A stretch of 64,000 nt of DNA from assembly GCA_045533185.1 (NCBI GenBank), contig JAZSHK010000073.1, positions 1,287 through 65,286 of the forward strand. Direction: 5' to 3'. Below are positions 5,450 to 35,451 of the stretch, piece after piece. Under the pieces are notes generated by a model. The model did no database searches. It was not told the origin of the DNA and was given only the letters and a program-made list of their open reading frames with translations. The translations under genes were made by a program, and so were the position numbers. Position 1 is the stretch's first letter, and each line of letters begins with the position of its first letter. This stretch comes from Acutalibacteraceae bacterium (GTDB lineage Bacteria > Bacillota > Clostridia > Oscillospirales > Acutalibacteraceae).

Positions 5450-5452
5450 TAC

Positions 5453-5528
<76 letters not shown>

Positions 5529-5529
5529 C

Positions 5530-5590
5530 AATGAATGACACCCCAAATGTGAACCATCACGGTTCGATTGAGGTGTCATTCATTCTTTTT
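5530..5590 (+). terminator. Terminator after the tRNA pair
   Basis: AATGAATGACACC ... GGTGTCATTCATT long stem followed by CTTTTT. Confidence 0.75.
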
Positions 5591-5598
5591 AACTCCAG

Positions 5599-5637
5599 TA
5601 AGGAACGGCTTTCGCGGCCGTTCCTTATTTATTTTTA
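5599..5637 (+). terminator. Second hairpin plus T-tract at the left edge of the AT-rich island
   Basis: AAGGAACGGC-TTTCGCG-GCCGTTCCTT followed by ATTTATTTTT. Confidence 0.55.
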
Positions 5638-5698
5638 ATCGAACTGTCAATGTCAAAACTCATCAAAATATGTGCAGAAATTTTAAAGGGGTAACGAA

Positions 5699-6274
5699 TT
5701 GAACTGGAAAAGTTCGATTAAACTGAAGAATTATCGTTATTTTGAGCGTGTTTTTTATTGTAAGAAGCCTCTGTATCGTTTGGGGTACGATATCGATTCA
5801 TTTGATGAGGTCGCTGACAACATCGGTACAAGCAAGGAAGATGCCGCCGAAATTATCCGATGCGGAATGCAGAATATGCAGTTTGTGGACTATTACCGCC
5901 AATACGCCGACGAGGATAGTGAAGAAAGCCGAGAAGAAATTGCACACGACAGTTCTGCCGAGCCGGACAAGTTGTTCTTTAAATTAGAACGTGCAGAAGC
6001 GATTATGGCAGCATTTGAAAAACTAAACTACCGTGAACGAGCAATGGTTTCTGCTCATCTTGGCTTTTGTATGGAATGTTATGCCACCCATTACTACGAT
6101 GCTGACGATTTAAATGAGGATGGAAAACCCACACGAAAACCGTTACCCGAAGAAGCGTTTATAGATATTGCCATAGATCACGGTTTGGCTTCGCCCGATA
6201 CCGCAGATAAAACGTATCGCAGGGCACTCAATAAGATAAAGAAAAAACTGAAAGAATGTAATAATTATGTGTAA
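5699..6274 (+). CDS. Sigma-70 family-like protein retaining only region 3/4 (possibly truncated)
   Basis: TTG start follows AAAGGGG. The C-terminus LNYRERAMVSAHLGF ... FIDIAIDHGLASPDTADKTYRRALNKIKKKL looks like a sigma region 4 HTH with an insertion. No region 2 is present upstream. Confidence 0.5.
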   Translation: MNWKSSIKLKNYRYFERVFYCKKPLYRLGYDIDSFDEVADNIGTSKEDAAEIIRCGMQNMQFVDYYRQYADEDSEESREEIAHDSSAEPDKLFFKLERAEAIMAAFEKLNYRERAMVSAHLGFCMECYATHYYDADDLNEDGKPTRKPLPEEAFIDIAIDHGLASPDTADKTYRRALNKIKKKLKECNNYV

Positions 6275-6505
6275 ATTTAAGAAGAATAAAAATAGGAAAC
6301 TTGCACAAAGAAAAAAGCAGTAAAAAGTATAGTGAAAAAGAAGGTTTATGACATTAAGTACTTCTCTTTTAAATCTTGTGTGCGAAATAATATGTTGCAA
6401 ACAGACCAATTCTTTTTGTCAGTTCGGTTTCAAAGGATCGGTTCACATCACTGTATCGCTGGGAAATTCTAGGCAAATTTTAGCTTCTTAATTTGCTGTT
6501 AAAAC

Positions 6506-6534
6506 TTGACAAATTATTTTGTTTGTGATACAAT
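6506..6534 (+). promoter_or_regulatory. Sigma-A promoter for the secreted-protein/ABC operon
   Basis: TTGACA, a 17-nt spacer, then TGaTACAAT, about 95 nt upstream of ATG 6631. Confidence 0.6.
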
Positions 6535-6630
6535 AATTCAAGTTTTTGTATAGAATGATGCGAGACTAAAATCATTTGAGAGAATACAAATAGCTAAAAT
6601 TCATTAAATATCAAAAGGAGTTTACAACAA

Positions 6631-7233
6631 ATGAATGCTAAAAAAATTTTTAAAAAAGTTATAACTGTTATGCTGTCTGTTATAGTTGTTTCTACGATGA
6701 CAATGCTTCCAGCTAGTGCTGCATATTCTTACTATAACAGTTATTCGTTCTCAACAGGCGCACTCTGGTGGAAGCAAAATTACACTGCCAAAGTTTACAG
6801 AGATCCAAACTGGTTTCGTGTTTATTACGGTAATGCCAACGTATCCACAGGGTTTGAATATAAAAATAATACTAACATAGTTTTATCACAAACAAAGAAT
6901 TTTTCTATTGGCACACAAACAAAAGCATCACTAAATGCAGGCGTTGACTTTTCAAGTTATGGGGTGCCAGCAAATGTTGGAGGCTCAATTGAAAAAACCA
7001 CTTCTGCATCTTGGGGTGCATCTAACACAGCGTCAAGAACTATTGAGGCGAGTGCACCAAAGGGATATTATAGTTACAATGTTTGCTTGAATACATATAA
7101 AATTAAAGTCACAAAGTATCAGAATGGCACCAACAAAGGAACCATACAGTTCTTTGCTCCTCGTAGCCAACCCTACCGATCTATAGTATATAATAGAAAT
7201 AACGCTTCTTATAGCGGTGTAACTCGTTACTAA
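6631..7233 (+). CDS. Small secreted beta-rich protein (Sec signal peptide), function unknown
   Basis: RBS AAAGGAG is present. The N-terminus MNAKKIFKKVITVMLSVIVVSTMTMLPASA|AY is a typical signal peptide. The mature part of about 170 aa is rich in S/T/N/Y/G with alternating polar and hydrophobic stretches. Confidence 0.75.
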   Translation: MNAKKIFKKVITVMLSVIVVSTMTMLPASAAYSYYNSYSFSTGALWWKQNYTAKVYRDPNWFRVYYGNANVSTGFEYKNNTNIVLSQTKNFSIGTQTKASLNAGVDFSSYGVPANVGGSIEKTTSASWGASNTASRTIEASAPKGYYSYNVCLNTYKIKVTKYQNGTNKGTIQFFAPRSQPYRSIVYNRNNASYSGVTRY

Positions 7234-7338
7234 TCATTGTTGTAGCAAACAATGGTTGTGAGAATATTGATTACCGATTGACAAATAAGGGGAGTATACG
7301 CACAAGTATACTCCCTTTATATATATGAGGAGAATCCT

Positions 7339-8208
7339 ATGAAAACAAAAAAAAGCTTATTAAACTTGATTAGTTTGATTTTAATAATTTTTCTATTTTC
7401 GGGTTGTACTAGTGAACAACAAGAAACTGCTGATTTTATGAATACTGCTTCTAACATTTTTATTAATTCTAAAAGTTTGGATACATTGTCATTTAATGTT
7501 GCTCTTTTTTCAAAACGAAAAATAGATAAAATTGATTATATGGGAATTGAAGGTACAAACGTAAACAATGATGATTATACCGTAAATATAATTGATAATA
7601 ATATTGATGTTTTAAATTCATATAAGTACAAAGGTTTATACATAAAATATATTATGGTAGAAATAACCGCTAAAGATAATATTAAAAATTGTACCTTCGA
7701 GAATCTTATCCTAAATGTTGATGGGGTTCGGCAATCTTTAAATTTTTCAACACCTGTTAATCATATATTTTCAGAAGGAAATATATTTACAGAAGAATTG
7801 CAAATTTCAGTTATTCCTAATGAATTTCCTTCGAGTTTTATAAATAATAAACAAGAAGGCGTAACGTATGAATTTTATGCGACAGAGGATGTTGTGTTGC
7901 AGGATATACGTCTTGATGATTTTTTGTCTGTATCCAATGTTATTTATGCAATTGGAGATGAAGATGCACATAATGCCGATTTTCCAATAGATGTAAAAAA
8001 AGGAGAAACGATTAGGATTTCCTTTTCTTTCACTTCCAATTCTGTAAATGAGTTAAGTTATGTCGCTACAAACATTTATTTTGATTATTTAACGAAATCA
8101 GACAATGAAAAACTTTTGAATAGTGTATTTGTTGTTTTTGATCCTATCTATCCTGTTATTGAGAATGACGCTTCCAACATAAATAAAATAGTAGACAGTC
8201 TAAAATAA
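7339..8208 (+). CDS. Lipoprotein, function unknown
   Basis: RBS GAGGAG is present. The signal peptide ends in the lipobox LFSGC. No recognisable catalytic motif. Confidence 0.7.
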   Translation: MKTKKSLLNLISLILIIFLFSGCTSEQQETADFMNTASNIFINSKSLDTLSFNVALFSKRKIDKIDYMGIEGTNVNNDDYTVNIIDNNIDVLNSYKYKGLYIKYIMVEITAKDNIKNCTFENLILNVDGVRQSLNFSTPVNHIFSEGNIFTEELQISVIPNEFPSSFINNKQEGVTYEFYATEDVVLQDIRLDDFLSVSNVIYAIGDEDAHNADFPIDVKKGETIRISFSFTSNSVNELSYVATNIYFDYLTKSDNEKLLNSVFVVFDPIYPVIENDASNINKIVDSLK

Positions 8209-8228
8209 TAATTTCAAGGAGAATTTAA

Positions 8229-9080
8229 ATGAAAAAGATTTTACCGTTTATTTGCATTCTTCTTCTTTTGACATCATGTATATTTGGAATTTTGTATTTT
8301 ACCGCATTAGATGATGAGGAAAATGATCTAGAAGTTCAACAATCCACAACGCCTTTAAGATCAACGGTAGAGTCTGGAATCATTAATAGTACGATCACAA
8401 CTACTGGAAATGTTATCAATGACGCTGCCGATATCTATATAGAAAATATATCTATTGATTTTGAAAACAAATTAGACAGCAAGTATTTTAGATCAACACA
8501 TAAAATCGGAGATGTTTTAAAAAAAGATGATATTCTATATACATATAAAGAAAAAGACATACAGACAAAATACGATTGTAAAATTGTAAATATGATTATT
8601 TCTGAAGAGTCAGTTCAATTTAATCTTTTAAACTATGATAAATTATTTATTGTTGCTTCTATTGATTATGATAAATTGAATTTACTTAATTTTGACACCA
8701 AAACAATAATAACTCTAACAACGCAAGATGCGACAAAAACATATACTGGCAAAATTATTAATTTTGGTTATGAAGTAAAAGATGGAAAAGTGGATGTGCA
8801 AATCCATTCTGATGAAAAATTTCTCCCCGGCACCCCTTTGGAAATCAGTTTTGAAATAGTACATCAAACAGAATCTCTCTATATATTAAAACAAATGCTT
8901 TTAATGGATGGAGATATCTATTATGTTGAAGTCGAAAATGAAGATGGACAAAGAACTCGTAGAGAAGTTGAAATAGGTGATTTTTTTGACGAATATTCTA
9001 ACAATGAGAAAATTGAGTATGTAGAAATAAAAAATGGCTTACAATTAGGAGAACGCCTAATTGTAGATATTATAGAATAG
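8229..9080 (+). CDS. Membrane-fusion / periplasmic adaptor protein (HlyD/YknX-like)
   Basis: There is an N-terminal TM anchor and a lipoyl-like IGDVLKKDDILY segment. The C-terminal beta-barrel pattern YYVEVENEDG..REVEIGD...VEIKNGLQLGERLIVD is typical of MacA/YknX adaptors. Confidence 0.7.
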   Translation: MKKILPFICILLLLTSCIFGILYFTALDDEENDLEVQQSTTPLRSTVESGIINSTITTTGNVINDAADIYIENISIDFENKLDSKYFRSTHKIGDVLKKDDILYTYKEKDIQTKYDCKIVNMIISEESVQFNLLNYDKLFIVASIDYDKLNLLNFDTKTIITLTTQDATKTYTGKIINFGYEVKDGKVDVQIHSDEKFLPGTPLEISFEIVHQTESLYILKQMLLMDGDIYYVEVENEDGQRTRREVEIGDFFDEYSNNEKIEYVEIKNGLQLGERLIVDIIE

Positions 9081-9088
9081 GTGATTTC

Positions 9089-9754
9089 ATGGCAAAGACT
9101 ATAATAGAAATGGAAAAAATCAAAAAAACCTACGATGGCAAAAGATATGTGTTAAACGATTTGTATTTTACGGCTCAAGAAGGAGAATTAACTATAATTA
9201 AAGGACAATCAGGTTCTGGAAAAAGCACACTTTTAAACATTTTAGGACTACTTGATGTTTTTGATTCAGGTACATATATATTGAATAACCATCAAATTGA
9301 TTCTCAAAAAAACAACAAATACGCAAACATACGCTCGGATATGATTGGATTTATTTTCCAATCATATCATCTAATCGAGTCAATCAGCATTCAAGATAAT
9401 ATTTTGCTACCTTTTTTATATTCTGAAAAAAGAATTAGTACAGAAGTTATTCAGCGAATGAAAACTATTCTTGAAAATTTTAATCTGATTGAAATGAAAG
9501 ATAAAAATGTTTCTTTACTTTCAGGCGGTGAAAAACAACGAGTAGCAATAGCACGTGCAATTATAAAGAATCCTCCGTTAATTATCGCTGATGAGCCTAC
9601 AGGGAATTTAGATGATGAAAACTCACGAATTGTAATTGATTATCTTAAAGATCTGACATTCAATGGAACTACTATAGTCTTAGTTACTCATGATATGAAT
9701 TTATTGAAATATGGCGATGCCTCTTATTCACTGAAAGAAGGCAGGTTAATCTAA
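9089..9754 (+). CDS. ABC transporter ATP-binding protein (MacB/LolD/FtsE type)
   Basis: Walker [11 protein letters not shown]-loop, signature [14 protein letters not shown], Walker [14 protein letters not shown] and H-loop VTHD are all present. Confidence 0.9.
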
Positions 9755-11073
9755 TGAAAGTGAATAAATTTTTCTTTTACATAAAACATCTTTTCAAAAT
9801 GTGCTTTTATAACAAATTTAGATTCCTTCTTTCAGTTATTGGCTTGTTCGTAGGATTATTTGTGTTTACTACAGGAAATATTTTAATTGATTCGTATTAT
9901 AATGAAAACAGAAAAAACGCAGCTCAAATGGACGAACACATTGTGGCATTAAGGTACGAATCTGAAGATAGAATTGACAAACAAACTATCATTAATTCAG
10001 CCTTTGAAGCAATATTTGCTACTGAAAAGACAACTATTTTTGCAAAAAAATACCAAGATGATTTGATATGTTCTCTTTCTGCTTCTATTGTCGGTGTCTC
10101 TAATATAGATGATGTAATTCCTATACAATCAACAAATGGAGATTTTTTAATTACAAAAAGCAGCTTATTGAAGGGACGGTTTATTAACGGAAATGATATT
10201 GCCCTTAGCAATAATGTTATTGTAATAGATGAATTTACTGAATCACTTCTTTTTCCAAATGGAAACGCTATAGGCTCATCAATCACACTTGATGTTTCTC
10301 TGCCCGGTATTAGTAATATTTCCACTAAACCAGAAACAGGAGACAAAATAGAAAAAAGACAATGTGTTGTAATTGGTGTAATAAGAAACAGTTATTTTCA
10401 AACGCAAGAAAAAATGAGATTTGATAAATTTTGCAAAAACGCTTCTGAAACAATTCAATTAAATACAATGGTATACTGCCCCTTCTCCTATGTTAATAAT
10501 AACTTTGAAATATCTTCTCAAAAGCTCCTTATTTGGAATGAAGCAAGTAATAATCAAAAAATAAAAGACCGTCTTACTTTATATAAAAATCAAAGTCTGA
10601 AAGAATTTTCTTCATATGATATAATAGACAGAAACTCAGTTATGACTAAAAATGCCAACGAGTTAAAGCCTTTGAAAGTATTCCTAACATTAATTATGTT
10701 AATTTTATTAATTATTTCAGGAATTAATGCTATGAATACTATGTTTTTTTCAATAAAAGAAAGAATAAACGAAATTGGTATAAAAAAAGCTTTAGGAGCT
10801 ACAAAATTAGAAATATTGAATCAATTTATTATAGAAGGAATGATGATATCTTTTATTGCTTCAATTGTAGCTATTATTTTCGGTTGCTTGACAGTACTTT
10901 TAATACAAACGTATCTTAATGAAAGATTATTTATCCTATTTGAAGTTGTTTTTAAACCTTCAAATTTATTGCTACCTATTTTCGTGGCTTTTCTATATGG
11001 ATTTGTTTTTAGCGTCATTCCAAGCTATTATGGCGCAAGAATTAAGGTTACTGATTCGTTAAGATTTGAATAA
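9754..11073 (+). CDS. ABC transporter permease, FtsX/MacB family
   Basis: The start overlaps the ATPase stop (TAATG). The protein has an N-terminal TM, a large extracytoplasmic domain and a C-terminal FtsX block (ERINEIGIKKALGATK...). Confidence 0.85.
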   Translation: MKVNKFFFYIKHLFKMCFYNKFRFLLSVIGLFVGLFVFTTGNILIDSYYNENRKNAAQMDEHIVALRYESEDRIDKQTIINSAFEAIFATEKTTIFAKKYQDDLICSLSASIVGVSNIDDVIPIQSTNGDFLITKSSLLKGRFINGNDIALSNNVIVIDEFTESLLFPNGNAIGSSITLDVSLPGISNISTKPETGDKIEKRQCVVIGVIRNSYFQTQEKMRFDKFCKNASETIQLNTMVYCPFSYVNNNFEISSQKLLIWNEASNNQKIKDRLTLYKNQSLKEFSSYDIIDRNSVMTKNANELKPLKVFLTLIMLILLIISGINAMNTMFFSIKERINEIGIKKALGATKLEILNQFIIEGMMISFIASIVAIIFGCLTVLLIQTYLNERLFILFEVVFKPSNLLLPIFVAFLYGFVFSVIPSYYGARIKVTDSLRFE

Positions 11074-11075
11074 CA

Positions 11076-11312
11076 GCAGACCGTTACTCGACATTTTTGA
11101 ATTTTCGCAATGTAAGCATTTAATACATTTGACTTTTCGAGACATACTTTGTGTAATGTTGTGTTCTATTAATAATTTTGGTACTCGGCATGTTGGTACT
11201 TCCAACCTTGGTCTGAATGAAATATTGATATTGCATCAGCAGGTAACTTTTCAAAATAAGCAGTTAAGCATTTTTCTAATTTGTTCTAAATTAGGACTTG
11301 TTGAAACGGAAT
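11076..11312 (-). pseudogene. IS3-family transposase (rve integrase core) remnant, frameshifted and truncated
   Basis: The minus strand reads ..ADAISIFHSDQGWKYQHAEYQ, then after a frameshift KLLIEHNITQSMSRK. This matches the conserved HSDQG.QY ... SMSRKGNC block of IS3 OrfB. Stops interrupt it and the ftsX-like gene cuts it off. Confidence 0.6.
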
Positions 11313-11360
11313 AAGATATGATCTCGTTGTTAAATAAATAACCATAAAACAAAAAAAGAA

Positions 11361-11409
11361 GCTCCATTAGGAATGTAGAAATTACTGCGCTCCTAACGGA
11401 GCATTTTTG
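11361..11409. terminator. Hairpin with flanking A/T tracts (possible bidirectional terminator)
   Basis: GCTCCATTAGGA ... TCCTAACGGAGC, preceded by AAAAAAA and followed by ATTTTT. Confidence 0.45.
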
Positions 11410-11488
11410 GTTTTTAACACGCATATATCGTTTTTAGAGGGGACTTGTTTATTCCTACTCGCTCCCGAAAAGAGAAAATTAATCAATT

Positions 11489-11722
11489 TTGCATAAATAT
11501 TTTTACTCACATTATGGTGAGTGCGGCATTCATAACGATGGCGTGATATATTTCATTTATATAATGAACGAAGAATCCTATTGTTATTTGGAGATGGATC
11601 CAACAACTCAAGAAATTTTACACGAGGACGATCCGATGTTTATTGGATCTGAGGAAAGAAACGAGCGTGTTAATAAACTAATTGAAATTATTAACACCAT
11701 TATTGATTCAAAAAGCAATTGA
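11489..11722 (+). CDS. Hypothetical small protein (weak call)
   Basis: Open frame only, with a TTG start, no clear RBS and no recognisable motif. Confidence 0.25.
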   Translation: MHKYFYSHYGECGIHNDGVIYFIYIMNEESYCYLEMDPTTQEILHEDDPMFIGSEERNERVNKLIEIINTIIDSKSN

Positions 11723-11816
11723 CAAAAGGCAAAGGGCCGTTGGAATTAAATCCAGCGGCTTTTTGTAAAATATAACTCAAATGGTGGAAAATATTATTTA
11801 AATATGTAATATATAC

Positions 11817-11845
11817 TTGACATTTTTCATATACTGTGATATACT
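11817..11845 (+). promoter_or_regulatory. Sigma-A promoter for the XRE module
   Basis: TTGACA, a 17-nt spacer, then TGaTATACT, 20 nt upstream of ATG 11865. Confidence 0.6.
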
Positions 11846-11864
11846 CTATTGCGGAGGTGGAAAT

Positions 11865-12071
11865 ATGGCAAAAAACATACGTATTAAGATTGCACGAATT
11901 GAAAAGGATATGACACAAGCTCAATTAGCAGAAGCTGTTGGTGTTTCCAGACAAACGATGAGCGCAATCGAAAAAGGTGATTACAATCCAACGATTAAAT
12001 TATGTATTGCTATATGCAAAGTTTTAAATAAAACATTAGATGAGCTTTTTGGAGGGATTGATTATGAGTAA
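11865..12071 (+). CDS. XRE-family HTH transcriptional regulator
   Basis: RBS GGAGGTGG precedes ATG 11865. The sequence MTQAQLAEAVGVSRQTMSAIEKGDYNPTIKLCIAICKVLNKTLDELF is a canonical Cro/C1 HTH of the YozG-like short type. Confidence 0.9.
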   Translation: MAKNIRIKIARIEKDMTQAQLAEAVGVSRQTMSAIEKGDYNPTIKLCIAICKVLNKTLDELFGGIDYE

Positions 12072-12507
12072 AAAGCAATATGACGAAAAACAAATCATAG
12101 AAAGAGGAAAATCTTTTCAATACGCCTTCACTGGTGCTATCGTAGTAAATATTATCATTTATTTATTAAGCGATTTTGTTGGAATAGGTTTTGCCAATGG
12201 TGCAATCTGTCTGATAAATATAGGTTTACCAATCGCAATATATATGCTTTCGATGATTATTAAGAATGGTTATGACGGTGTTTCAAATGCCGGCAAAAAA
12301 TTGAATATCTCTGCATTGGGCGGTTGCGGAGTTGCTCTGCTGATTGTATATTTGCCTGACATTATTTCGGGTAAAAAGCTTTTAATAGATAATGCACTGA
12401 TTACCGAAAGTGCTGGTGCTTTGTTAATTAGTATTTTGATCTTAGTAGTGGTGCTTGTATATTGGATAAAGAAGCATATTGAGAAGAAAAGCGAAAACGA
12501 CGAATAA
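12064..12507 (+). CDS. Multi-pass membrane protein coupled to the XRE regulator
   Basis: ATG 12064 follows GGAGGG and overlaps the XRE stop by 8 nt. There are about 4 hydrophobic helices. The arrangement resembles XRE plus small membrane protein pairs common in Firmicutes. Confidence 0.7.
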   Translation: MSKKQYDEKQIIERGKSFQYAFTGAIVVNIIIYLLSDFVGIGFANGAICLINIGLPIAIYMLSMIIKNGYDGVSNAGKKLNISALGGCGVALLIVYLPDIISGKKLLIDNALITESAGALLISILILVVVLVYWIKKHIEKKSENDE

Positions 12508-12520
12508 GGAGAACTTGGCT

Positions 12521-12724
12521 ATGAAATGTCCACATTGTAACAGCGAAAATATTGAAGTAGGCTTGAGAATGTTTGAGTCGCTCAACGGAAGTCCTGTTGG
12601 CTTTAGATTTAGCAAAGGAATTATGAGTGTAGTGGCACAGATACACTGTGATATATGCAAAGACTGCAAAACTATAGTAAGAAGTTATATTATCGAATCT
12701 ACCGACAAAAAGTGGCTTAAATAA
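12521..12724 (+). CDS. Zinc-ribbon small protein
   Basis: RBS AAGGAGAA is present. The motifs CPHC ... CDICKDC give a four-Cys zinc-ribbon pattern in 67 aa. Confidence 0.6.
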   Translation: MKCPHCNSENIEVGLRMFESLNGSPVGFRFSKGIMSVVAQIHCDICKDCKTIVRSYIIESTDKKWLK

Positions 12725-12763
12725 TTTGTTATAAAAGTAATCCATTTTCCAACACAATATCCA

Positions 12764-12805
12764 CGAACAGGGCAGAGTTTATAATACTCTGCCCTGTTCG
12801 TTTAT
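12764..12805 (+). terminator. Rho-independent terminator after the XRE module
   Basis: A 14-bp perfect stem CGAACAGGGCAGAG / CTCTGCCCTGTTCG followed by TTTAT. Confidence 0.8.
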
Positions 12806-12816
12806 AAAATAGGTAT

Positions 12817-12969
12817 TCAATTGTAAATAATTTCGTTTTGTATAATTTCTGTAGCTCGATTATAAATATTGTTCATACGACCAATCCATTCCATTTGGTT
12901 ATCTGCTTTAAGTTTTTCTGTCACGCCATATAAAGCAACGACACAGGATCTTACTTGATCCTGTGCCAT
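12817..12969 (-). pseudogene. TnpV (transposon-encoded protein) C-terminal remnant
   Basis: The minus strand reads MAQDQVRSCVVALYGVTEKLKADNQMEWIGRMNNIYNRATEIIQNEIIYN*. This matches the conserved C-terminal LKA.DQM.W...MN.I...AEEIVL.EL.Y block of clostridial TnpV proteins. Upstream is blocked by a stop, so only about 50 aa remain. Confidence 0.6.
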
Positions 12970-13043
12970 GTGCTTTTTGTCATCCTACTCGGTCTGCGTA
13001 ATTCTCCTTTAAGAACATTACGCTTTAGTGGGCGGGATTTTTC

Positions 13044-13072
13044 TTGTATACGCACCTCTTTTATGCTATAAT
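13044..13072 (+). promoter_or_regulatory. First copy of the cassette promoter (TTGTAT-17-TGCTATAAT)
   Basis: It shares CACCTCTTTTATGCTATAAT with the six downstream R elements. Downstream of the -10, its leader differs from theirs. Confidence 0.65.
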
Positions 13073-13122
13073 AAACATAACATAATGGATAATGACTATA
13101 TAACGATGCTTAGGAGGTTAAT

Positions 13123-13560
13123 ATGCGTAAAAATTCTTTATGGATGATGCTTGGTTCACTCGTTACGATACTTATAATATTATGCTTTTCTTTTTTTACA
13201 AGTTATGAAAAAAATATACATAAGATGTTAGGTACGATGGTGGTCTATAAACACGAAAGTATAACAACCCATCTGTCTTCCGATGCTTGTGCATATTTGT
13301 CTGACGGAAATCGTTCATTGTATTTTGGTGAGTTGCCATCTGAAGAATCTGCTATAGAAATCAACAGTCCCGATAGAGCAACATTATATGTATTTCCACT
13401 AGATGATGATTCTATAATTATTAAGTATGAGCCACGAAACGGCGGAATTAAAAGAACCTATAAAAAATCCGGTTATGGAGATTTTAATTGCGTATTAAAA
13501 ACCTTGTACGAGCTTACGGGTAATGAAATTTTTAACGAAACAATAGATTACGATAATTAA
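13123..13560 (+). CDS. Cassette ORF 1: membrane-anchored hypothetical protein
   Basis: RBS TAGGAGG is present. The protein has an N-terminal TM helix and no recognisable domain. Confidence 0.7.
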   Translation: MRKNSLWMMLGSLVTILIILCFSFFTSYEKNIHKMLGTMVVYKHESITTHLSSDACAYLSDGNRSLYFGELPSEESAIEINSPDRATLYVFPLDDDSIIIKYEPRNGGIKRTYKKSGYGDFNCVLKTLYELTGNEIFNETIDYDN

Positions 13561-13565
13561 AATAT

Positions 13566-13791
13566 GAAAATCCTCGGTTTTCACCCAGTTCTTTTTCGGA
13601 CACAACATCGTTTTGCAACGCAGTTGCAAACATCATTTAGCCGAAGGCTAACATCGTTCCGCTTTAGCGGACACAAAACGAGGTTGCGCTTTGCGCAAAC
13701 AGTGTTGTGCTTCGCACAAACGATATAGGCTTACGCCCAACGATGTTGCACTTCGTGCAAATTTATGCTATAATACGCTTAAGGCGGTGAT
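13566..13791 (+). repeat. Inter-cassette element 1 (conserved L end, variable palindromic core, conserved R promoter/RBS end)
   Basis: The L block lies at 13566-13603. The core has AACATCGTT-type words (x3), then AACGATGTT-type words, and seven mini-hairpins. The R block at 13762-13791 carries TTGCAC-17-TGCTATAAT and AAGGCGGTGA. Confidence 0.85.
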
Positions 13792-13794
13792 GAA

Positions 13795-14193
13795 ATGGAT
13801 TGGAAAGAAAAGTTTAAAAAATCTTTAGATTTTACTTATGAGATGGTAAAACGTAAGGTCGCTGATATTAAATATCCGTGTTACGGTGGAGAAATTTATA
13901 AGTATGCATTTCTAATACATCAACAAGAACTTTATTTTTATTTAACTCCCCGAGGAATACTATTTACGCCGAGTGGTGCTTCCGTTAAAGAGATACCCTT
14001 TAGCGATATAAGAAAATTGGCTATAAAAAAAGGCAGAATTATTAATTGGTATCATATTCGCTTTATAGCAGATAAAAAGTATCATTTTTATATTCATTGC
14101 AAAGAAGTGTTTTCAACTGAATTAACGGGTGATGCATCTGAAAATGTAAAAGCATTTATCGAAACTTTGCGATTAAGTGTTAAAAACAATTAA
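13795..14193 (+). CDS. Cassette ORF 2: bacterial PH/GRAM-like (YokE-like) domain protein
   Basis: The start is 7-8 nt after the conserved RBS. The pattern GILFTPSGASVKEIPFSDIRKLAIKKG...HIRF resembles bacterial PH-domain proteins. Confidence 0.7.
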   Translation: MDWKEKFKKSLDFTYEMVKRKVADIKYPCYGGEIYKYAFLIHQQELYFYLTPRGILFTPSGASVKEIPFSDIRKLAIKKGRIINWYHIRFIADKKYHFYIHCKEVFSTELTGDASENVKAFIETLRLSVKNN

Positions 14194-14200
14194 TTATTAC

Positions 14201-14504
14201 GAAAATCCTCGGTTTTCGCCCATTTCTTTTTCGGACACGAATGACAAAAAAACTCCTTGAGATTTCTCAAGGAGTTTTTCAGTTATATTCGCCTTCGGCG
14301 AGTTATATTGCTTCGCAGTGATATTTAGGCTACGCCTAAGTGATATTGCCCTTCGGGCAGTTAAGGGCGAATATAATATCACTTTTGCGATAGCAAAAAT
14401 ATCACTATGCCGTAAGGCATAATATCACTCTGTGCGGAGCACAAAATATCACTAACCCTTGCGCCTTTACCTCTTTTATGCTATAATGTACCCAAGGCGG
14501 TGAT
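14201..14504 (+). repeat. Inter-cassette element 2
   Basis: The L block lies at 14201-14248 and the terminator hairpin at 14245-14280. The words AGTTATATT/AGTGATATT occur x4, then AATATCACT x4, interleaved with GC mini-hairpins. The R block lies at 14464-14504. Confidence 0.85.
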
Positions 14505-14507
14505 TGT

Positions 14508-14930
14508 ATGAAGAAGTTAAGAATTATTATTTTGATATTTATAATATTTGGTTTAATTTTTTCGGTTGGCGGTGCATTTCTTTGCGTAAATGCTTTTGAT
14601 TATGGTAATAAAGCAGAAACAACCGCAGTAATCACTGATTTTGAGTCTTATCGGGAACATGCTGGCGGCAAATGGCGAACGCGTTATAAAACTCATTTGA
14701 CATATGAGGTTGACGGCGAATCTTATGACAATACTGTTAAAATGTATTCGTCTTCATGGAATATAGGAGAAAAAATCGAAATTTATTATGATGTTGATAA
14801 TCCTCAAAACATTGGTTCAAAACATACAGATTTAGCATTACTTGTAGTACCGTGTCTCGGCTTGTTGTTTTTTAGTTCCGGAACGATACTAATGTTAATA
14901 ACTCGTAAAAAAGCGAAAATGATAAATTGA
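14508..14930 (+). CDS. Cassette ORF 3: DUF3592-like membrane protein
   Basis: The protein has an N-terminal TM, a beta-rich middle (TTAVITDFESY...YEVDGESY...IEIYYDVDNP) and a C-terminal TM. This is the typical DUF3592 layout. Confidence 0.75.
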   Translation: MKKLRIIILIFIIFGLIFSVGGAFLCVNAFDYGNKAETTAVITDFESYREHAGGKWRTRYKTHLTYEVDGESYDNTVKMYSSSWNIGEKIEIYYDVDNPQNIGSKHTDLALLVVPCLGLLFFSSGTILMLITRKKAKMIN

Positions 14931-14973
14931 GTTTTGAATTTGCTAAAATACGGTTAAATAATGGCATTTACAA

Positions 14974-15228
14974 AAAAATCCTCGGTTTTCGCCCAGTTCT
15001 TTTTCGGACACGAATGACAAAAATCCCGAATGCGAAAGCGTTCGGGATTTTACTTTTTCACTATTCACTTTTCACTCTTCACTAAATTCGCATTCGGGAT
15101 TTTTGGAAAGTACGAAGTAATAGTGAATAGTGAAGAAGTAATGTGTGGCTTCGCCACGGATTATAAAATACAATGCTCCGCATTGATTTATTGCCGCTTT
15201 TATGCTATAATACACCCAAGGCGGTGAT
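14974..15228 (+). repeat. Inter-cassette element 3
   Basis: The L block lies at 14974-15023 and the terminator at 15019-15051. TTCACT occurs x4, then AGTGAA-type words. The centre repeats the terminator arm. The R block lies at 15193-15228. Confidence 0.85.
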
Positions 15229-15231
15229 TAA

Positions 15232-15567
15232 ATGTTTGAAGAAATGATTTTCATTGCAAAAAATAAACTTGCGACAATAGATGAAATTATTGAAGGATTA
15301 CCAGCACCACAAGTTACAGTGCTTTTATCTAATAACAATAATGTTTATGTAGCAGTTAATGATATTGATGGAATAATCTGCGAAAAAATAAAACACGATA
15401 AAATCACTCAAATGCTTACTATGTGGAAAGATGGGAGTATCGATATATCTTCTTACGCCTTTCGCAAGACTCTTGTTAAAATGGATAGAGATAACAACAA
15501 TACGGATGTTTTATTACAGGGTAAGAATAATTACTTGATTAAAAAATTAGCAGACACAATTATCTGA
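15232..15567 (+). CDS. Cassette ORF 4: cytoplasmic hypothetical protein
   Basis: It has the conserved RBS and spacing. No TM segment and no recognisable motif. Confidence 0.65.
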   Translation: MFEEMIFIAKNKLATIDEIIEGLPAPQVTVLLSNNNNVYVAVNDIDGIICEKIKHDKITQMLTMWKDGSIDISSYAFRKTLVKMDRDNNNTDVLLQGKNNYLIKKLADTII

Positions 15568-15568
15568 T

Positions 15569-15879
15569 TAAAAATCCTCGGTTTTTAGACCAGTTCTTTT
15601 TCGGACACGAATGACAGAAAAAAGGACTTCACATTCGTGAAGTCCTTTTTTCAATGAAATTCGTTCCTTGCGGAACGAGTGAAATATTGCTACGCAATAT
15701 GAAATACGCTTCGCGTATGAAATATGCCTACGGCATATGAAGGAACGAATTTTATTTCACATTTTTGCATCGCAGAAATATTTCATAATCCGAAGGATTA
15801 TTTCATATCGGCAGAGCCGATATTTCATTATACCTTGCTCTTCCACCGCTTTTATGCTATAATTTACCCAAGGCGGTGA
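15569..15879 (+). repeat. Inter-cassette element 4
   Basis: The L block lies at 15569-15620 and the terminator at 15617-15651. TGAAAT occurs x4-5, then ATTTCA x4, each separated by 5-7-bp mini-hairpins. The R block lies at 15841-15879. Confidence 0.85.
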
Positions 15880-15883
15880 TTTT

Positions 15884-16564
15884 ATGAAACGTAAATTATC
15901 GAAACTTGCAATTATTTGCTTATGTGTATTTTTTGTAGTTGTAATTGGAATTTTTGTATTGTTATGGAATAGTGGTACTTTTGTATTTGATCACTCGGCA
16001 AAAGTTGGATTTGAAGGTATGGTTTGGAATGATAAGAATTATTCAACAATTACCGGCGAATATACAGAGGGGAGAACAATTGCCAAAAGTGAAGATGGTA
16101 GTTGGAAAATCAATGAAGTTAAAGAAGATCCATCACATACTTTTGTTGTTGCACGTTCTTTTTTAGACCAATATTTATTTGTTTTTGATGGTTATACGGT
16201 TCCTACAAGCGGTAAAATCACAACGGTTTGTTGGAATGGTGAGTACATTAAAGATAAAGACTTTATAGAAGTTTTAGCAAAAATTGATGTTGCCAAAACA
16301 ACCTCGTTTGATTATGAAACAGAAGCAATATTTCTTCTTAATGATAATCAGCGTATGAAGTCTTTATATTTTGCGTATGAAAATTGTCCTGTTGCAACGG
16401 TAAATAAGGGCTGGTTAGGGAAAATAAAAGGCGAATGGGTTATAACCACATATATTTCTTCTAACCAAAATAATGAAGATGGTTCTCCAAAACCGTACAT
16501 GGTAGGATGCTATTCTATTCCTGATAAATATTCGCAAATTTTAGATAAGTACTTTTTTGAATAA
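15884..16564 (+). CDS. Cassette ORF 5: membrane-anchored hypothetical protein
   Basis: It has the conserved RBS and spacing and an N-terminal TM helix. The remaining extracytoplasmic part of roughly 195 aa is of unknown function. Confidence 0.7.
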   Translation: MKRKLSKLAIICLCVFFVVVIGIFVLLWNSGTFVFDHSAKVGFEGMVWNDKNYSTITGEYTEGRTIAKSEDGSWKINEVKEDPSHTFVVARSFLDQYLFVFDGYTVPTSGKITTVCWNGEYIKDKDFIEVLAKIDVAKTTSFDYETEAIFLLNDNQRMKSLYFAYENCPVATVNKGWLGKIKGEWVITTYISSNQNNEDGSPKPYMVGCYSIPDKYSQILDKYFFE

Positions 16565-16596
16565 TTAAGCGCTGTTATATAATACAATTATAAGTA

Positions 16597-16824
16597 AATC
16601 TTCAGTTTTCAGGCACATTTTATTCGTGTCATTAAGTTCAAACTACCCAAACGAAAATCCGTTCTCGTAAGAGGGCGGATTTTTGTTTGTATTATTCACT
16701 ATTCATTAAAAGAGAACGGATTTTCGAATGAATAATGAAAAATGAAGTCGCTTACGCTGATGAATAATGAATAATTCTTGCGGTTCCACCGCTTTTATGC
16801 TATAATACACCTAAGGCGGTGAAA
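16597..16824 (+). repeat. Inter-cassette element 5 (divergent L end)
   Basis: The divergent L block lies at 16597-16635 and the terminator at 16652-16690. ATTCACT/ATTCATT words are followed by AATGAAT-type words. The R block lies at 16786-16824. Confidence 0.8.
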
Positions 16825-16828
16825 TCTC

Positions 16829-17260
16829 TTGAAAATTAAAAAATATATTTTTATTCCAATATTAGTTGTATTATGTATAATTCTTTATGCTGTTTTTGCA
16901 AAGCCAGCTATTGAAACACACACTTGGGTGTTATCTATGGCACAAAAAGCAGAGCCGTTTTCTGTAGTAGCACATAAAACTGGATATGATTTTTCTGATG
17001 ATGACAGTAATATTTTTGCATTTTCTAAAGAAATAGAACTCACCTGCACAGCAAAAGATGGTAAACTTACCATAAGTGACAAAACAAATGGGAAAACCTA
17101 TGAAGGAATCTACAAAGTCACTTCTTGGGGGAGGTTTACAGGACAAAGTTATACCGTGATTATAGATGGAAAAGACGGCACTGCAAATATTAGTTCAAAA
17201 TTTAACCGCACCTTATTTATATCGGTTGGGGGTTATTATTTGACTTTTGAAATTCAATGA
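16829..17260 (+). CDS. Cassette ORF 6: membrane-anchored/secreted hypothetical protein
   Basis: TTG start lies at the conserved distance from the RBS. The protein has an N-terminal hydrophobic helix and a beta-rich remainder. Confidence 0.65.
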   Translation: MKIKKYIFIPILVVLCIILYAVFAKPAIETHTWVLSMAQKAEPFSVVAHKTGYDFSDDDSNIFAFSKEIELTCTAKDGKLTISDKTNGKTYEGIYKVTSWGRFTGQSYTVIIDGKDGTANISSKFNRTLFISVGGYYLTFEIQ

Positions 17261-17266
17261 TTTATA

Positions 17267-17448
17267 AAAAAATCCTCGGTTTTTACCCAGTTCTTTTTCG
17301 GACACGAATGACAAAGCCCCAAGGACGATAAGTTCTTGGGGCTTACTTCTTACCTATTACCTCTTCACTCTTACCTCAAAATGTCCTTGGGGCTTTGGGA
17401 ACTAAGAAGTAAGAAGTAATAAGCATTGCGCCTTCTCCGCTTTTATGC
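17267..17448 (+). repeat. Inter-cassette element 6, with R end truncated at the island/core junction
   Basis: The L block lies at 17267-17315 and the hairpin at 17315-17343. CTTAC(C/T)-type words are followed by AGTAAG-type words. The R copy stops after CCTTCTCCGCTTTTATGC at 17448, where GC-rich DNA begins. Confidence 0.85.
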
Positions 17449-35358: not shown

Positions 35359-35451
35359 TGTACATTAAAGCAGGGGATGCACCGCAATGCTCCTTGTCCA
35401 AAAATCAGCAAAACTATACTAAATTAATATTTAATATAGTTCAGGGGAGGC

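Follow-up and report, generated by a model that had tools for sequence, protein, structure and literature searches.

Composite DNA repeats of six types look like folded spacer modules of an integron-like cassette array in a gut Clostridia genome

The window, a 64-kb stretch of an Acutalibacteraceae contig, carries a six-gene cassette array at 13.1-17.45 kb, in an island low in GC. Each of the six spacers contains a short word repeated and then the reverse complement of that word. These six cores are very probably types A to F of one composite-DNA-repeat superfamily, forming the spacer modules of a gene-cassette array, and the spacers look like folded-DNA modules of an integron-like array, not RNAs or chance repeats. 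The cores are copies of a widespread, uncharacterised DNA repeat family of gut Clostridia which includes the orphan "Gut-1 RNA" motif; members of the superfamily occur at more than 100 genome loci of gut Oscillospirales.

Plan of the cassette array

A cassette runs from a -10 box through RBS and ORF to a conserved 3' tail of about 45 nt (the L module), and is followed by a spacer comprising an intrinsic terminator, the core and a -35 box. In each core an oriented 7-nt word (heptad, reading WTCAY on one of the strands) is repeated two to five times, and after a centre copies of it follow in inverted orientation. At sites 3, 5 and 6 the heptads are contiguous with a 7-nt period, while those of sites 1, 2 and 4 are separated at each word boundary by a perfect mini-hairpin whose loop is C(GNA/GNNA)G. 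At five of the six sites, 0-6 bp separate the end of the inverted (right) array from the -35 box. No module was found outside the array within the 64-kb window; array and low-GC island both finish at 17448, with host sequence from 17449. The features are as follows.

13044-13072, + strand: cassette 1 promoter TTGTAT-17-TGcTATAAT, R module; terminator remnant alone before R, no core
13567-13603, + strand: site 1 L module (conserved 3' tail of upstream cassette), truncated, joined to core at GGACAC
13604-13670, unstranded: site 1 (type A) left array, AACATCRTT three times (AACATCGTT at 13604 and 13650, AACATCATT at 13629), perfect mini-hairpin behind every word
13671-13718, unstranded: site 1 centre, GGACACAAAACGAGG and two mini-hairpins
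13719-13747, unstranded: site 1 right array, AACGATATA at 13719, hairpin, AACGATGTT at 13739; overlaps -35 box
13746-13790, + strand: site 1 R module, -35 TTGCAC, 17-nt spacer, TGcTATAAT, RBS AAGGCGGTGA
14202-14246, + strand: site 2 L module
14248-14279, + strand: site 2 intrinsic terminator
14281-14358, unstranded: site 2 (type B) left array, AGTKATATT four times (AGTTATATT at 14281 and 14301, AGTGATATT at 14317 and 14339), mini-hairpin behind every word
14359-14377, unstranded: site 2 centre; GGCGAATATAAT complements word 1 and the 5' arm of hairpin 1, closing the left arm
14375-14453, unstranded: site 2 right array, AATATCACT four times (14375, 14398, 14421, 14445), with three mini-hairpins between words (loops GATA, GTAA, GGA)
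14459-14503, + strand: site 2 R module, TTGCGC-17-TATAAT, RBS
14972-15019, + strand: site 3 L module
15018-15051, + strand: site 3 terminator; 5' arm "a" (15018-15036) is the perfect complement of "c" (15087-15105)
15056-15083, unstranded: site 3 (type C) left array, four contiguous heptads NTTCACT (TTCACT four times, 15057-15083)
15087-15105, unstranded: site 3 centre "c", TTCGCATTCGGGATTTTTG
15116-15142, unstranded: site 3 right array, AGTAAT AGTGAAT AGTGAAG AAGTAAT (AGTGAAT at 15122, AGTGAAG at 15129)
15183-15227, + strand: site 3 R module, -35 TTGATT within hairpin CAATGCTCCGCATTG
15570-15616, + strand: site 4 L module
15617-15652, + strand: site 4 terminator
15653-15739, unstranded: site 4 (type D) left array, RTGAAAT four times (TGAAAT at 15655, 15680, 15700, 15718) and four mini-hairpins
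15740-15756, unstranded: site 4 centre, the 3' strand of long-range helix P0 (partner 15653-15669)
15754-15828, unstranded: site 4 right array, ATTTCAY four times (ATTTCA at 15754, 15780, 15800, 15822) and three mini-hairpins
15835-15879, + strand: site 4 R module
16596-16648, + strand: site 5 L module, variant L2, with ATTCGTGTC, the inverse of GACACGAAT in L1
16648-16689, + strand: site 5 terminator; arm "a" (16652-16666) is the perfect complement of "c" (16712-16726)
16690-16707, unstranded: site 5 (type E) left heptads, ATTCACT at 16694, ATTCATT at 16701
16727-16775, unstranded: site 5 right heptads, WAATGAA series (AATGAA four times, ATGAAT three times, 16727-16772), one interrupting hairpin GTCGCTTACGC
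16778-16822, + strand: site 5 R module
17266-17313, + strand: site 6 L module
17314-17344, + strand: site 6 terminator hairpin; arm "a" (17312-17326) is the perfect complement of "c" (17383-17397)
17342-17376, unstranded: site 6 (type F) left array, five contiguous heptads CTTACTT CTTACCT ATTACCT CTTCACT CTTACCT (words CTTACT, CTTACC twice, ATTACC)
17400-17424, unstranded: site 6 right heptads AACTAAGAAGTAAGAAGTAATAAG, GTAAG at 17409, GTAAT at 17416
17426-17448, + strand: truncated R module TTGCGC...CCGCTTTTATGC, last part of the array

Compared with L156, a 97% identical counterpart at another locus, site 1 lacks the terminator and 5' arm "a".

Words, hairpins and the folded strand

The direct and inverted words which the sequence-only reading had listed for the six sites were all found in place. 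A score for word order (direct 6-mer copies all before inverted ones) was compared with 500 dinucleotide-preserving shuffles per site. Sites 2-5 scored above all 500 and site 1 was matched by a single shuffle; for site 6, 14 of the 500 reached the score, which is not significant on this crude statistic. The words had been said to change completely between sites. On one strand they are instead variants of one theme, W-T/A-T-C-A-Y, namely AACATCGTT, AATATCACT, TTCACT, ATTTCAY, ATTCAYT and CTTACYT. Nor are the cores site-specific, as the same six types and several others recur at ~85-99% identity in many other genomes.

Compensatory covariation, the core of the earlier reading, holds for the inter-word mini-hairpins and for the helix P0 that closes the left arm, and fails between the words, which drift without compensation, an outcome that the earlier reading had itself named as refuting. 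Across 23 site 2 homologues, variation is seen in the left words (AGTTATATT, AGTGATATT, AGCGATATT, AGTGGTATT, AGTGCTATT, AGTGTTATT) and the right words are constant (AATATCACT); for the heptad types, shifting the best left/right register by 7 or 14 nt lowers complementarity by just ~0.1. The relation between the arms is therefore one of motif, a single oriented word present in both orientations, and not of base pairs. Such a relation is how protein-binding repeat arrays look, and protein binding is what the earlier reading had excluded.

Folded on both strands with DNA and RNA parameters, the six cores beat shuffles (z = -3.4 to -8.0). In a 21-sequence alignment of type D, 97.6% of cells were paired and 22 of 40 pairs carried changes on both sides, giving a covariation score of 0.54 against 0.18 for shuffles and at most 0.17 for partners slid out of register. 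In the curated alignment, one-sided variation was absent from the pairs of P0 and the core hairpins; variation in the terminator and anti-SD helices went through G-U. The hairpins persist although their stem sequences are wholly replaced. The many double changes in mini-hairpins and P0 bear out the claim that a folded single-stranded structure is selected.

The 244 distinct inter-word spacers are pure hairpins, with 0.77 nt left over, and their pairs comprise 1133 Watson-Crick (99%), six G-T, five A-C and one other. The terminators directly upstream have 1075 Watson-Crick, 44 G-T and 10 A-C pairs, a wobble bias of the RNA type for the + strand (binomial p = 3e-6) and a wobble rate different from that of the hairpins (Fisher p = 2e-8). 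On the strand carrying WTCAY, triloops are GNA in 66 of 100 cases and tetraloops GNNA in 73 of 105, none is TNC, and the loop-closing pair is C-G in 193 of 205. Loop polarity is strictly tied to word orientation (139 G..A against 0 T..C). GNA triloops and GNYA tetraloops are typical of DNA mini-hairpins, not of RNA. Stems free of G-T bias beside terminators that tolerate G-U, together with these loop types, are a signature of DNA rather than RNA; the shortness of the stems (3-8 bp) could partly account for the missing wobble. The loops are those of the motif GCGNAGC/GCGNNAGC, called "mini-hairpin DNA", which occurs in priming signals of ssDNA and in the hairpin promoters of phage N4 (PMC13037366).

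These data bear on the proposal that the cores act as structured RNA, either as the Gut-1 sRNA of Rfam or as structures in read-through RNA which would insulate neighbouring cassettes by processing, blocking, or hiding the next ribosome-binding site. Rfam Gut-1 matches the left array of site 2 on the + strand (52.1 bits, 14280-14351), and at site 4 the left array on the + strand (74 bits, 15652-15728) and the right array on the - strand (54.9 bits, 15749-15830); the right array of site 2 scores 27.4 bits on the - strand, under threshold. The motif is half of a hairpin-type core (sites 1, 2 and 4), and its matches in the two arms lie on opposite strands. Weinberg et al. graded Gut-1 a likely RNA on the ground of covariation, and in its orientation the flanking words lengthen each hairpin by A-U and U-G pairs. 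In the R module, a helix of CCACCGCUUU with AAGGCGGUG would mask the SD in read-through RNA only; it is 93-99% paired, with C/U varying opposite G and changes on one side only, which suggests occasional + strand transcription of the spacer. We nevertheless regard an RNA role for the cores as improbable. The core begins right behind a strong intrinsic terminator and no promoter for it was found; its stems show neither G-U tolerance nor strand bias (six G-T against five A-C in 1145 pairs), whereas genuine RNA signals 20 nt away tolerate G-U; GNA triloops make up half of the loops, and GNYA is frequent among the tetraloops; every core carries the motif on each of its strands, and the arms are found in either order. 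Since the U-G closing pairs fall at invariant word positions, they are no evidence for RNA.

Distribution and exchange of the spacers

The L-module pattern occurs in at least 118 genome stretches, and modules confirmed by BLAST in at least 107 of these, nearly all of them, among the matches listed, from gut MAGs of Acutalibacteraceae, Oscillospiraceae or other Clostridia; the R module was found in 48 further metagenome stretches. At least 191 spacer units of at least nine recurrent types were collected. At least 40 stand directly after a tRNA gene (eight different identities) and at least 91 after an L module; arrays elsewhere usually begin right at the 3' end of a tRNA gene. Unit numbers change, and partial cores, hybrids between types and coreless spacers occur (for example at L056, L104:7123, L062:5060 and L078, and in cassette 1 of the window).

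The likeness to attC sites is a fair lead as regards the cassette array and the folded single strand, although the defining features of attC are missing: no integrase was found, cassette junctions lie outside the cores, and sequence is conserved within a type. On this proposal, cores folded as ssDNA during replication or DNA entry would be read by a HUH enzyme or a structure-specific recombinase with its gene elsewhere in the genome, which would insert, excise or shuffle cassettes. Structured spacers recur between mostly ORFan cassettes (101 clusters among 165 cassette proteins, and few Pfam matches), cassettes and spacers reassort independently between genomes, tRNA genes anchor the arrays, and arrays end within a module (after TTTTATGC in the window, in a type G core at L058). 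The wobble-free stems and the long-range covariation of P0 speak for selection at the single-strand level, and such mini-hairpins mark sites of ssDNA-acting enzymes (PMC13037366). We still consider the proposal unlikely. The 12-kb island contains no recombinase or transposase, and no such enzyme is common to the ~8-kb loci, a serine recombinase being present in just three. Where cassettes of different genomes are 94-99% identical, their homology spans CCGCTTTTATGC to the end of L and their spacers differ; it breaks in the conserved end of L and in the interval from -35 to -10, not in the cores; with breakpoints in conserved L and R modules, plain homologous recombination suffices. Conservation within a type covers sequence as well as structure, array ends have no fixed position, and the existence of both arm orders means that no single strand is marked.

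That the cores are selfish or structural repeats like REP/BIME elements or MITEs, spreading and homogenising in arrays by duplication and gene conversion and contributing at most in generic ways (additional termination, a sink for supercoils, padding that keeps terminator and promoter apart), appears less likely again. The families are discrete and of high identity in distant hosts, with the variable units, partial cores, hybrids and coreless spacers noted above, and neighbouring spacers are of the same type in 15 of 60 cases against 12% expected by chance, a pattern suggestive of local duplication. Template-switch correction can keep palindromes perfect without selection. However, the modules are confined to the array in the 64-kb window and so lack the dispersed distribution of REP elements and MITEs, and there are no terminal inverted repeats or target duplications. 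The strict loop polarity, and hairpins that outlast wholly replaced stems, argue for selection on the folded strand.

A candidate role at cassette promoters

We tentatively propose, as a possibility short of even odds, that single-strand-folding DNA spacers offer heptad arrays to a putative repeat-binding protein at each cassette promoter. The closest precedent is omega, the RHH repressor/ParB of Firmicutes plasmids, which needs at least four contiguous WATCACW repeats and whose 7-10 heptads, direct or inverted, overlap promoters (PMC9499535). The type B heptad of site 2, TATCACT, fits WATCACW exactly, though for so short a motif, chosen post hoc, chance agreement is roughly 2%. A search for an RHH protein or another candidate binder found none in the island and none common to the loci. 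Against the proposal, the words vary by type, so that the reader would have to be tolerant or come in several specificities; the left array sits beside the terminator, at a distance of 100-200 bp from the promoter, which simple operator logic does not explain; and the strongly covarying P0 is left unaccounted for. As P0 encloses the left arm, more than 100 nt would be single-stranded simultaneously. It is doubtful on steric grounds that duplex DNA could form three successive cruciforms at intervals of 7-9 bp, and a truly single-stranded state is therefore needed.

The selected state would then be folded single-stranded DNA, not RNA. Word spacing in the duplex is irregular (16-26 bp), so that a regular arrangement of the words arises only once the hairpins have folded; with the mini-hairpins folded out, those of sites 1, 2 and 4 would become contiguous tandem heptads like those of sites 3, 5 and 6. 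The hairpin versions would be readable only in unwound DNA, as under negative supercoiling behind a promoter, during replication, or in incoming single strands. The heptad arrays may thus be landing pads for a hypothetical oligomerising, repeat-reading protein, which would set or insulate the activity of the neighbouring cassette promoter.

Island and array layout

The window has a G+C content of about 54% and carries a low-G+C island (28–35%) extending from just past the tRNA-Asp and tRNA-Thr genes (5373–5528) to nucleotide 17448. The right third of this island (13.0–17.45 kb) holds six small plus-strand ORFs of 145, 132, 140, 111, 226 and 143 amino acids, only one of which has a Pfam match (DUF3592). 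Each is preceded by an R module, consisting of a –35 box (TTGNNN), a 17-nt spacer, an extended –10 box (TGcTATAAT) and, about 6 nt past the –10, a ribosome-binding site (AAGGCGGTGA) followed by the start codon. Cassette 1 possesses the R promoter, but its leader and ribosome-binding site differ from those of the other cassettes. Behind each ORF lies an L module, a 3' tail of about 45 nt (AAAATCCTCGGTTTT..CCAGTTCTTTTTCGGACACGAATGACA), replaced at site 5 by a variant, L2. A site-specific intrinsic terminator comes next, except at site 1. The core of each spacer comprises a word array, a centre and an inverted word array, and the six spacers are typed by their words:

13567–13790, site 1, type A core, word AACATCRTT
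14202–14503, site 2, type B core, word AGTKATATT
14972–15227, site 3, type C core, word TTCACT
15570–15879, site 4, type D core, word TGAAAT
16596–16822, site 5, type E core, word ATTCAYT
17266–17448, site 6, type F core, word CTTACY

In the window the array stops exactly after TTTTATGC (17448), and at L058, a related locus in another genome, it ends within a type G core; the array end is therefore not fixed.

Several further features of the island were recorded. It begins (5530–17448) right after tRNA-Asp(GTC) and tRNA-Thr(GGT), and the hairpin past tRNA-Thr (5531–5590; GAATGACAC / GTGTCATTC) resembles both L variants. L2 (AAATCTTCAGTTTTCAGGCACATTTTATTCGTGTCATTAAGTTCAAA) is present at 16596–16648 and in three related loci (L058:4690-4740, L087:3830-3885 and L104), and contains ATTCGTGTC, the inverse of GACACGAAT of the common L variant. 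Site 1 (13598–13604) is 97% identical to another locus (L156:863) from GGACAC onward, where L156 has a terminator and GTGTTTGTGTCCGCA ahead of GGACAC; judged by these sequences, the window copy looks like the product of a deletion that joined the GGACAC repeat of L to the GGACAC repeat of the core. The left part of the island specifies a protein of 191 aa whose C-terminus is sigma-70 region-4-like (by eye; no Pfam match), a 200-aa secreted protein, a lipoprotein and a 283-aa membrane-anchored protein, together with a candidate ABC ATPase and FtsX-type permease (6631–11073, assigned by eye); taken as a group, these genes resemble an export cluster for a bacteriocin or toxin. A 50-aa ORF at 12817–12969 (–), ending ...KADNQMEWIGRMNNIYNRATEIIQNEIIYN, presumably resembles the C-terminus of the TnpV proteins of Tn4451-like clostridial transposons, and may be a mobilisable-transposon remnant at the array head. 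Cumulative GC skew climbs to about 35 kb and drops beyond (35000–36000), which may mark a replication-related switch or a gene-orientation effect; were it replication-related, the array genes would be co-oriented with replication.

Distribution, cassettes and spacers

A degenerate L-module pattern was found in at least 118 genome stretches. Of the matches listed, 107 carry BLAST-confirmed modules, and their hosts are nearly all gut MAGs, human and ruminant, from Acutalibacteraceae, Oscillospiraceae, Faecousia, Fimenecus and other Clostridia. The R-module pattern was found in 48 metagenome stretches. The L-module pattern had no match in IMG/VR, and a phage origin was rejected on this ground. 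From the genome and metagenome stretches, the loci from other genomes being at most 8 kb each, 191 spacer units were extracted and classified by word counts, giving three further types (G, H and I) and 38 unclassified units, some with additional words. The sequence-only reading had called the words site-specific; the cores are however not private to each site, the six sites being six members of one family that recurs in other genomes. The idea that core types differ within an array to avoid deletion by homologous recombination was also discarded, since same-type neighbours are enriched, not depleted.

The superfamily is larger than the nine named types, as seen from a heptad-type core right behind a tRNA-Ser gene (L037:2023-2165; words TTCTCTC / GAGAGAA, with an a...c pair GAAACGACAATT / AAATTGTCGTTTC). 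In the same locus (L037:2400-2520), five direct copies of TAATCGTT with a period of about 20 bp stand immediately 5' of an R promoter, with neither palindromic spacers nor an inverted set; from its sequence this looks like a plain repeat operator at the usual core position. Elsewhere, G+C-rich inserts of about 170–250 nt separate the L module from the promoter that follows (L083:5119-5411, L028:1200-1650, L019:830-1130, L024:2780-3110) and have motifs in common (GCTTTACCGAC...GCGAAGGAGGTAG...GCGGTCGA). They may be an unrelated structured RNA or a mobile insert; an Rfam scan of L083 at gathering thresholds gave Gut-1 matches only.

A tRNA gene lies upstream of 40 of the 191 units (Thr 11, Asn 10, Cys 9, Gly 4, Arg 2, Leu 2, Ser 1, Trp 1), and in five loci (L058, L087, L115, L006, L071) the first spacer starts directly at the CCA end of the tRNA gene, without an L module. 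As an L module stands upstream of 91 units and is lacking in those adjoining a tRNA gene, L is part of the cassette. Where cassettes from different genomes are 94–99% identical, their homology starts at about CCGCTTTTATGC, which lies between –35 and –10, and runs up to where L ends; outside this segment their spacers differ, and around more distant cassette homologues the core types on the two sides differ as well. These breakpoints define two interchangeable parts, a cassette (–10, ribosome-binding site, ORF and L) and a spacer (terminator, core and –35). That core type goes with the neighbouring gene was rejected, since homologous genes are flanked by different cores on both sides.

The 165 cassette proteins form 101 clusters; their median length is 164 aa, and 41% have a hydrophobic N-terminus. 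Most have no Pfam family, and the few matches are to PTH2, GNAT, HAD, GDSL, esterase, peptidase S51 and DMP19, mixed enzymes with one DMP19-like protein; the idea that the cassette proteins are immunity families was rejected. Several cassettes, sitting behind R promoters as other cassettes do, specify XRE-HTH proteins whose C-terminal part is long and helical (L018:780-1893, L099:892, L076:1315, L020:3282), which may be RRNPP-like regulators.

Core structure and relation to Gut-1

Rfam covariance models (Gut-1 gathering score, 50 bits) matched Gut-1 (RF01706) as follows:

15652–15728 (+), left arm of site 4, 74.0 bits
15749–15830 (–), right arm of site 4, 54.9 bits
14280–14351 (+), left arm of site 2, 52.1 bits
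14394–14477 (–), site 2, 27.4 bits, under threshold

Two of the six cores are Gut-1 members by the Rfam threshold; the other four, in which the Rfam scan gave no Gut-1 match (sites 1, 3, 5 and 6), are relatives missed by the model. Gut-1 matches are numerous in related loci, and other Rfam families gave sub-threshold chance matches only (miRNA, Phe leader). Gut-1 goes back to the 2010 description of a probable sRNA in 43 metagenome sequences of the human gut, for which neither organism nor context nor function was known (Weinberg et al. 2010, PMC2864571), and our literature search found nothing later on it. As in Gut-1, the arms of sites 2 and 4 are UGAAAU-type words alternating with three covarying hairpins. 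Unlike the free-standing sRNA without context that was described, the element here is half of a larger one, occurs on both strands, and lies between the terminator and the promoter of a cassette array.

All words listed in the sequence-only reading were recovered at their positions. The layout of direct followed by inverted words was unmatched by 500 dinucleotide shuffles at sites 2–5 and nearly so at site 1 (1/500), but did not reach significance at site 6 (14/500). All six cores fold better than shuffles whichever strand is taken, under DNA as well as RNA parameters (z = –3.4 to –8.0). The proposed compensatory covariation between words and inverted words failed. Among the 23 type B units the left words occur in six forms and the right words are constant (AATATCACT), and a T-C mismatch is conserved in two of the four nested pairs of words. 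Complementarity in types C, E and F is 0.62–0.79 for the best left/right register, against 0.52–0.69 at shifts of 7 or 14 nt. Pairing of words with inverted words was accordingly rejected as the covarying feature in type B and in the heptad types, one of the heptad-type tests being underpowered. Since the words do not covary and the register advantage is small, the two arrays are one oriented motif present in both orientations.

Covariation resides in the hairpins and in a long-range helix, P0. At sites 1, 2 and 4, whose cores are of the hairpin type, a short G+C-rich palindrome comes after every word. In an alignment of 21 type D sequences the two right-arm hairpins show double changes at 5/5 pairs each, with 100% of cells paired. 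P0, the long-range helix closing the left arm, pairs word 1 and the 5' arm of hairpin 1 with the centre (15653–15669 with 15740–15756), has double changes in 7/11 pairs with 99% of cells paired, and competes with hairpin 1 for one arm. Whole-structure covariation in type D was 0.54, as opposed to 0.18 in shuffles (0/500 reached the observed value) and at most 0.17 with slid partners. The heptad types have an "a-b...c" arrangement as in the hairpin types, a-b being the terminator and c a perfect 15–19-nt complement of a at the centre; a-c hybrids were found in other genomes. Terminator/antiterminator logic was ruled out by inspection of both strands, because c arises after the terminator on the plus strand and competes for the same arm on the minus strand. 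An invertible promoter was likewise set aside, the a/c inverted repeats, 45–70 bp apart, probably lying too close together for duplex inversion.

Site 3 contains four contiguous 7-nt words (NTTCACT), site 6 five (CTTACYT) and site 5 two (ATTCAYT; left heptads only, the right array being interrupted); in other genomes ATTCAYT occurs in up to five copies. In duplex DNA the words of sites 1, 2 and 4 are irregularly spaced at 16–26 bp, which excludes helical phasing. Because the inter-word spacers are pure hairpins, folding them out would make the words adjacent in a tandem array (RTGAAAT in D, ATATCAC in B). At five of the six sites 0–6 bp separate the end of the right array from the –35 box, compared with 40 nt at site 3.

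The stem and loop statistics are of DNA type. In 244 distinct inter-word spacers the hairpin fills the whole spacer (0.77 nt left over). Core hairpins contained 1133 Watson-Crick, 6 G-T, 5 A-C and 1 other pair, compared with 1075, 44 and 10 Watson-Crick, G-T and A-C pairs in the intrinsic terminators 20–40 nt upstream, scored alike; these counts are of distinct sequences, not independent evolutionary events, and in RNA, too, short stems leave little room for wobble. The terminator G-T bias is a plus-strand RNA signal (p = 3e-6), and the wobble rate differs from that of the core hairpins (p = 2e-8). Variation on one side only affected 0 pairs in P0 and the core hairpins of the type D alignment and 8 in the terminator and R-module helix. 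On the WTCAY strand, triloops are GNA in 66/100 (GAA 34, GTA 15, GCA 14) and tetraloops GNNA in 73/105 (GTTA 17, GTAA 15, GCAA 12, GAAA 8, GATA 7). Altogether G..A occurs in 139/205 loops and T..C in 0, with a C-G closing pair, read on the word's pyrimidine strand, in 193/205; this strand was chosen per type using the loops. Independent of that choice are the TCA core common to the words and the concordance of the two arms, seen in six types. The GNA-loop strand is plus in one arm and minus in the other, the order being outward in B, D and H and inward in A, G and I. Strand assignment by G-U counts in whole-arm MFE folds was abandoned as an artefact of G+U-rich words pairing mutually.

The core loops show the mini-hairpin DNA motif (C-G closing pair, GNA/GNNA loop, sheared G-A). 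Mini-hairpins of the form GCGNAGC/GCGNNAGC are extraordinarily stable and nuclease-resistant as DNA, and are known in single-stranded DNA priming signals (G4, ssiA) and in the hairpin promoters of phage N4 (PMC13037366). The C(GNA)G / C(GNNA)G closure and short G+C stems are shared; those, however, are single hairpins read by primase or the N4 virion RNA polymerase, whereas here six to eight different hairpins are arrayed with words between them and on both strands.

These statistics point to DNA and not to the sRNA under which Gut-1 is filed. A role as RNA, either the transcribed sRNA or insulation against read-through, is unlikely in our judgement: the terminator lies immediately upstream, the stems lack G-U tolerance and the loops are of DNA type. 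What keeps it alive is the R module, where the –35/–10 spacer CCACCGCTTT can pair with the ribosome-binding site AAGGCGGTG (15844–15879, and at the equivalent position in every R module). This helix (CCACCGCUUU with AAGGCGGUG) varies one-sidedly, C/U opposite G, and is 93–99% paired in 21 sequences. As its 5' strand is upstream of the transcription start, it would hide the Shine-Dalgarno sequence solely in read-through RNA, and its G-U variation makes some plus-strand transcription across the spacers likely.

Comparison with known systems and possible roles

Like integrons, the arrays hold small, mostly unknown genes in one orientation between repeated elements, and the cassettes are low in G+C and horizontally shared; as in attC, the single-stranded fold of the spacer elements is conserved. 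Unlike integrons, they lie in Bacillota, have no integrase, attI, Pc or R/L boxes, and give each cassette its own consensus promoter and terminator. No recombinase was seen when every island ORF (5.5–17.45 kb) of 90 aa or more was accounted for, and no recombinase family was common to the 118 loci listed (each at most 8 kb, so that distal genes could be missed); the same searches gave no integron integrase with attI and Pc at an array end. The window Pfam summary (25 of 94 families) is uninformative on recombinases in the host part. The earlier analogy with attC, structure kept and sequence not, holds in that stems are replaced wholesale with pairing kept, and not in that words, centres and whole types retain their sequence. 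The cores fall into discrete sequence families, and cassette junctions lie outside them: homology ends at CCGCTTTTATGC and at the end of L, which argues against an attC-type crossover within the folded site. In attC the strand is marked by extrahelical bases; here the stems are perfect and both arm orders occur. That the cores are attC-like single-stranded recombination sites for an unseen enzyme is accordingly improbable, their conserved fold notwithstanding.

The rAID-1 arrays of Bacteroidales have a XerD-family recombinase at one end, T6SS immunity-gene homologues, and intergenic repeats called "reminiscent of integrons" (Ross et al., bioRxiv 10.1101/471110). Both systems are gut-bacterial arrays of small orphan genes with skewed GC and repetitive intergenic sequence, a likeness drawn from description. 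The present arrays belong to another phylum, show neither a XerD-family recombinase nor T6SS immunity homologues, and in at least 40 cases have at their head a tRNA gene with a spacer immediately behind it. In outline the array is like an integron or rAID-1, but it fails the defining tests, having no recombinase, junctions outside the structured site and promoters of its own.

REP/BIME elements are extragenic, lie 3' of genes, combine a short conserved word with a hairpin in alternating orientation, and are thought to act as single-stranded DNA; their stems are near-identical genome-wide, dispersed and associated with RAYT transposases. The cores have the same build, alternation and position. 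Unlike in REP, every hairpin within a core differs, the elements are confined to arrays and no RAYT gene was seen; within the 64-kb window, the stretch at 13.0–17.45 kb holds all L modules, R modules and cores. Selfish or merely structural repeats are the least probable account of the cores.

The closest known counterpart of the heptad arrays in build is the operator/parS of pSM19035, bound by omega (ParB-pSM, RHH), in which 7–10 WATCACW heptads, direct and inverted, overlap promoters; omega needs at least four contiguous repeats, and gaps abolish function in vitro (PMC9499535). Type B TATCACT fits WATCACW exactly, and NTTCACT, ATTCATT, CTTACYT and ATTTCAY are near-variants. At least four gapless heptads are reached by the left arrays of sites 3 (4) and 6 (5) and not by sites 1, 2 and 4 as duplex. 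Tandem 7-bp words, direct and inverted, in four or more copies at or adjoining promoters of Firmicutes mobile DNA are common to both. Unlike omega operators, other core types use TTCACT, TTCATT, TTACYT, TTTCAY or ACATCRT, every direct copy stands ahead of the inverted set with a centre segment in between, and the hairpin-type cores have gaps between words. No RHH-like (omega-like) ORF was present in the island ORF list or Pfam scans. The cores resemble omega operators in repeat grammar, membership not being established.

On the established architecture, family and distribution, module boundaries, DNA-type stem and loop statistics, motif-level left/right relation and promoter proximity, we tentatively place a reading that we regard as possible: the cores would act as folded single-stranded DNA, would thereby display tandem heptads to a repeat-reading protein, and this protein would set or insulate the adjacent promoter. 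Such a landing pad leaves P0, the terminator-proximal array, the multiple word types and the missing protein unexplained. More doubtful is the broader proposal that Gut-1 and its missed relatives are ssDNA-folding modules, not RNAs, of an undescribed tRNA-anchored cassette system of gut Clostridia (Oscillospirales) without a nearby integrase, in which promoter-bearing cassettes and hairpin/heptad spacers are swapped as separate standard parts, and the spacers would be sites for reading or rearranging the array when the DNA is unwound or enters the cell single-stranded.

Structured intergenic repeats and cassette arrays are known kinds; clearly new is the evidence for Gut-1-type elements as DNA modules of a tRNA-anchored cassette system. 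It provides the first genomic context for Gut-1, an orphan sRNA in Rfam since 2010 and known from the human gut only, along with a testable argument for a DNA function. It also brings to light a type of cassette array that is widespread among uncultured gut Clostridia, with a standard promoter, ribosome-binding site, 3' tail and terminator for each gene and interchangeable structured spacers. The spacer/promoter parts are compact natural insulator/promoter units, and the cassette content, more than 100 protein families, mostly unknown, is an accessory-gene pool moving among gut bacteria. If the spacers bind a protein or recombine, the system would be a Gram-positive counterpart of integrons and rAID-1 with a different logic.
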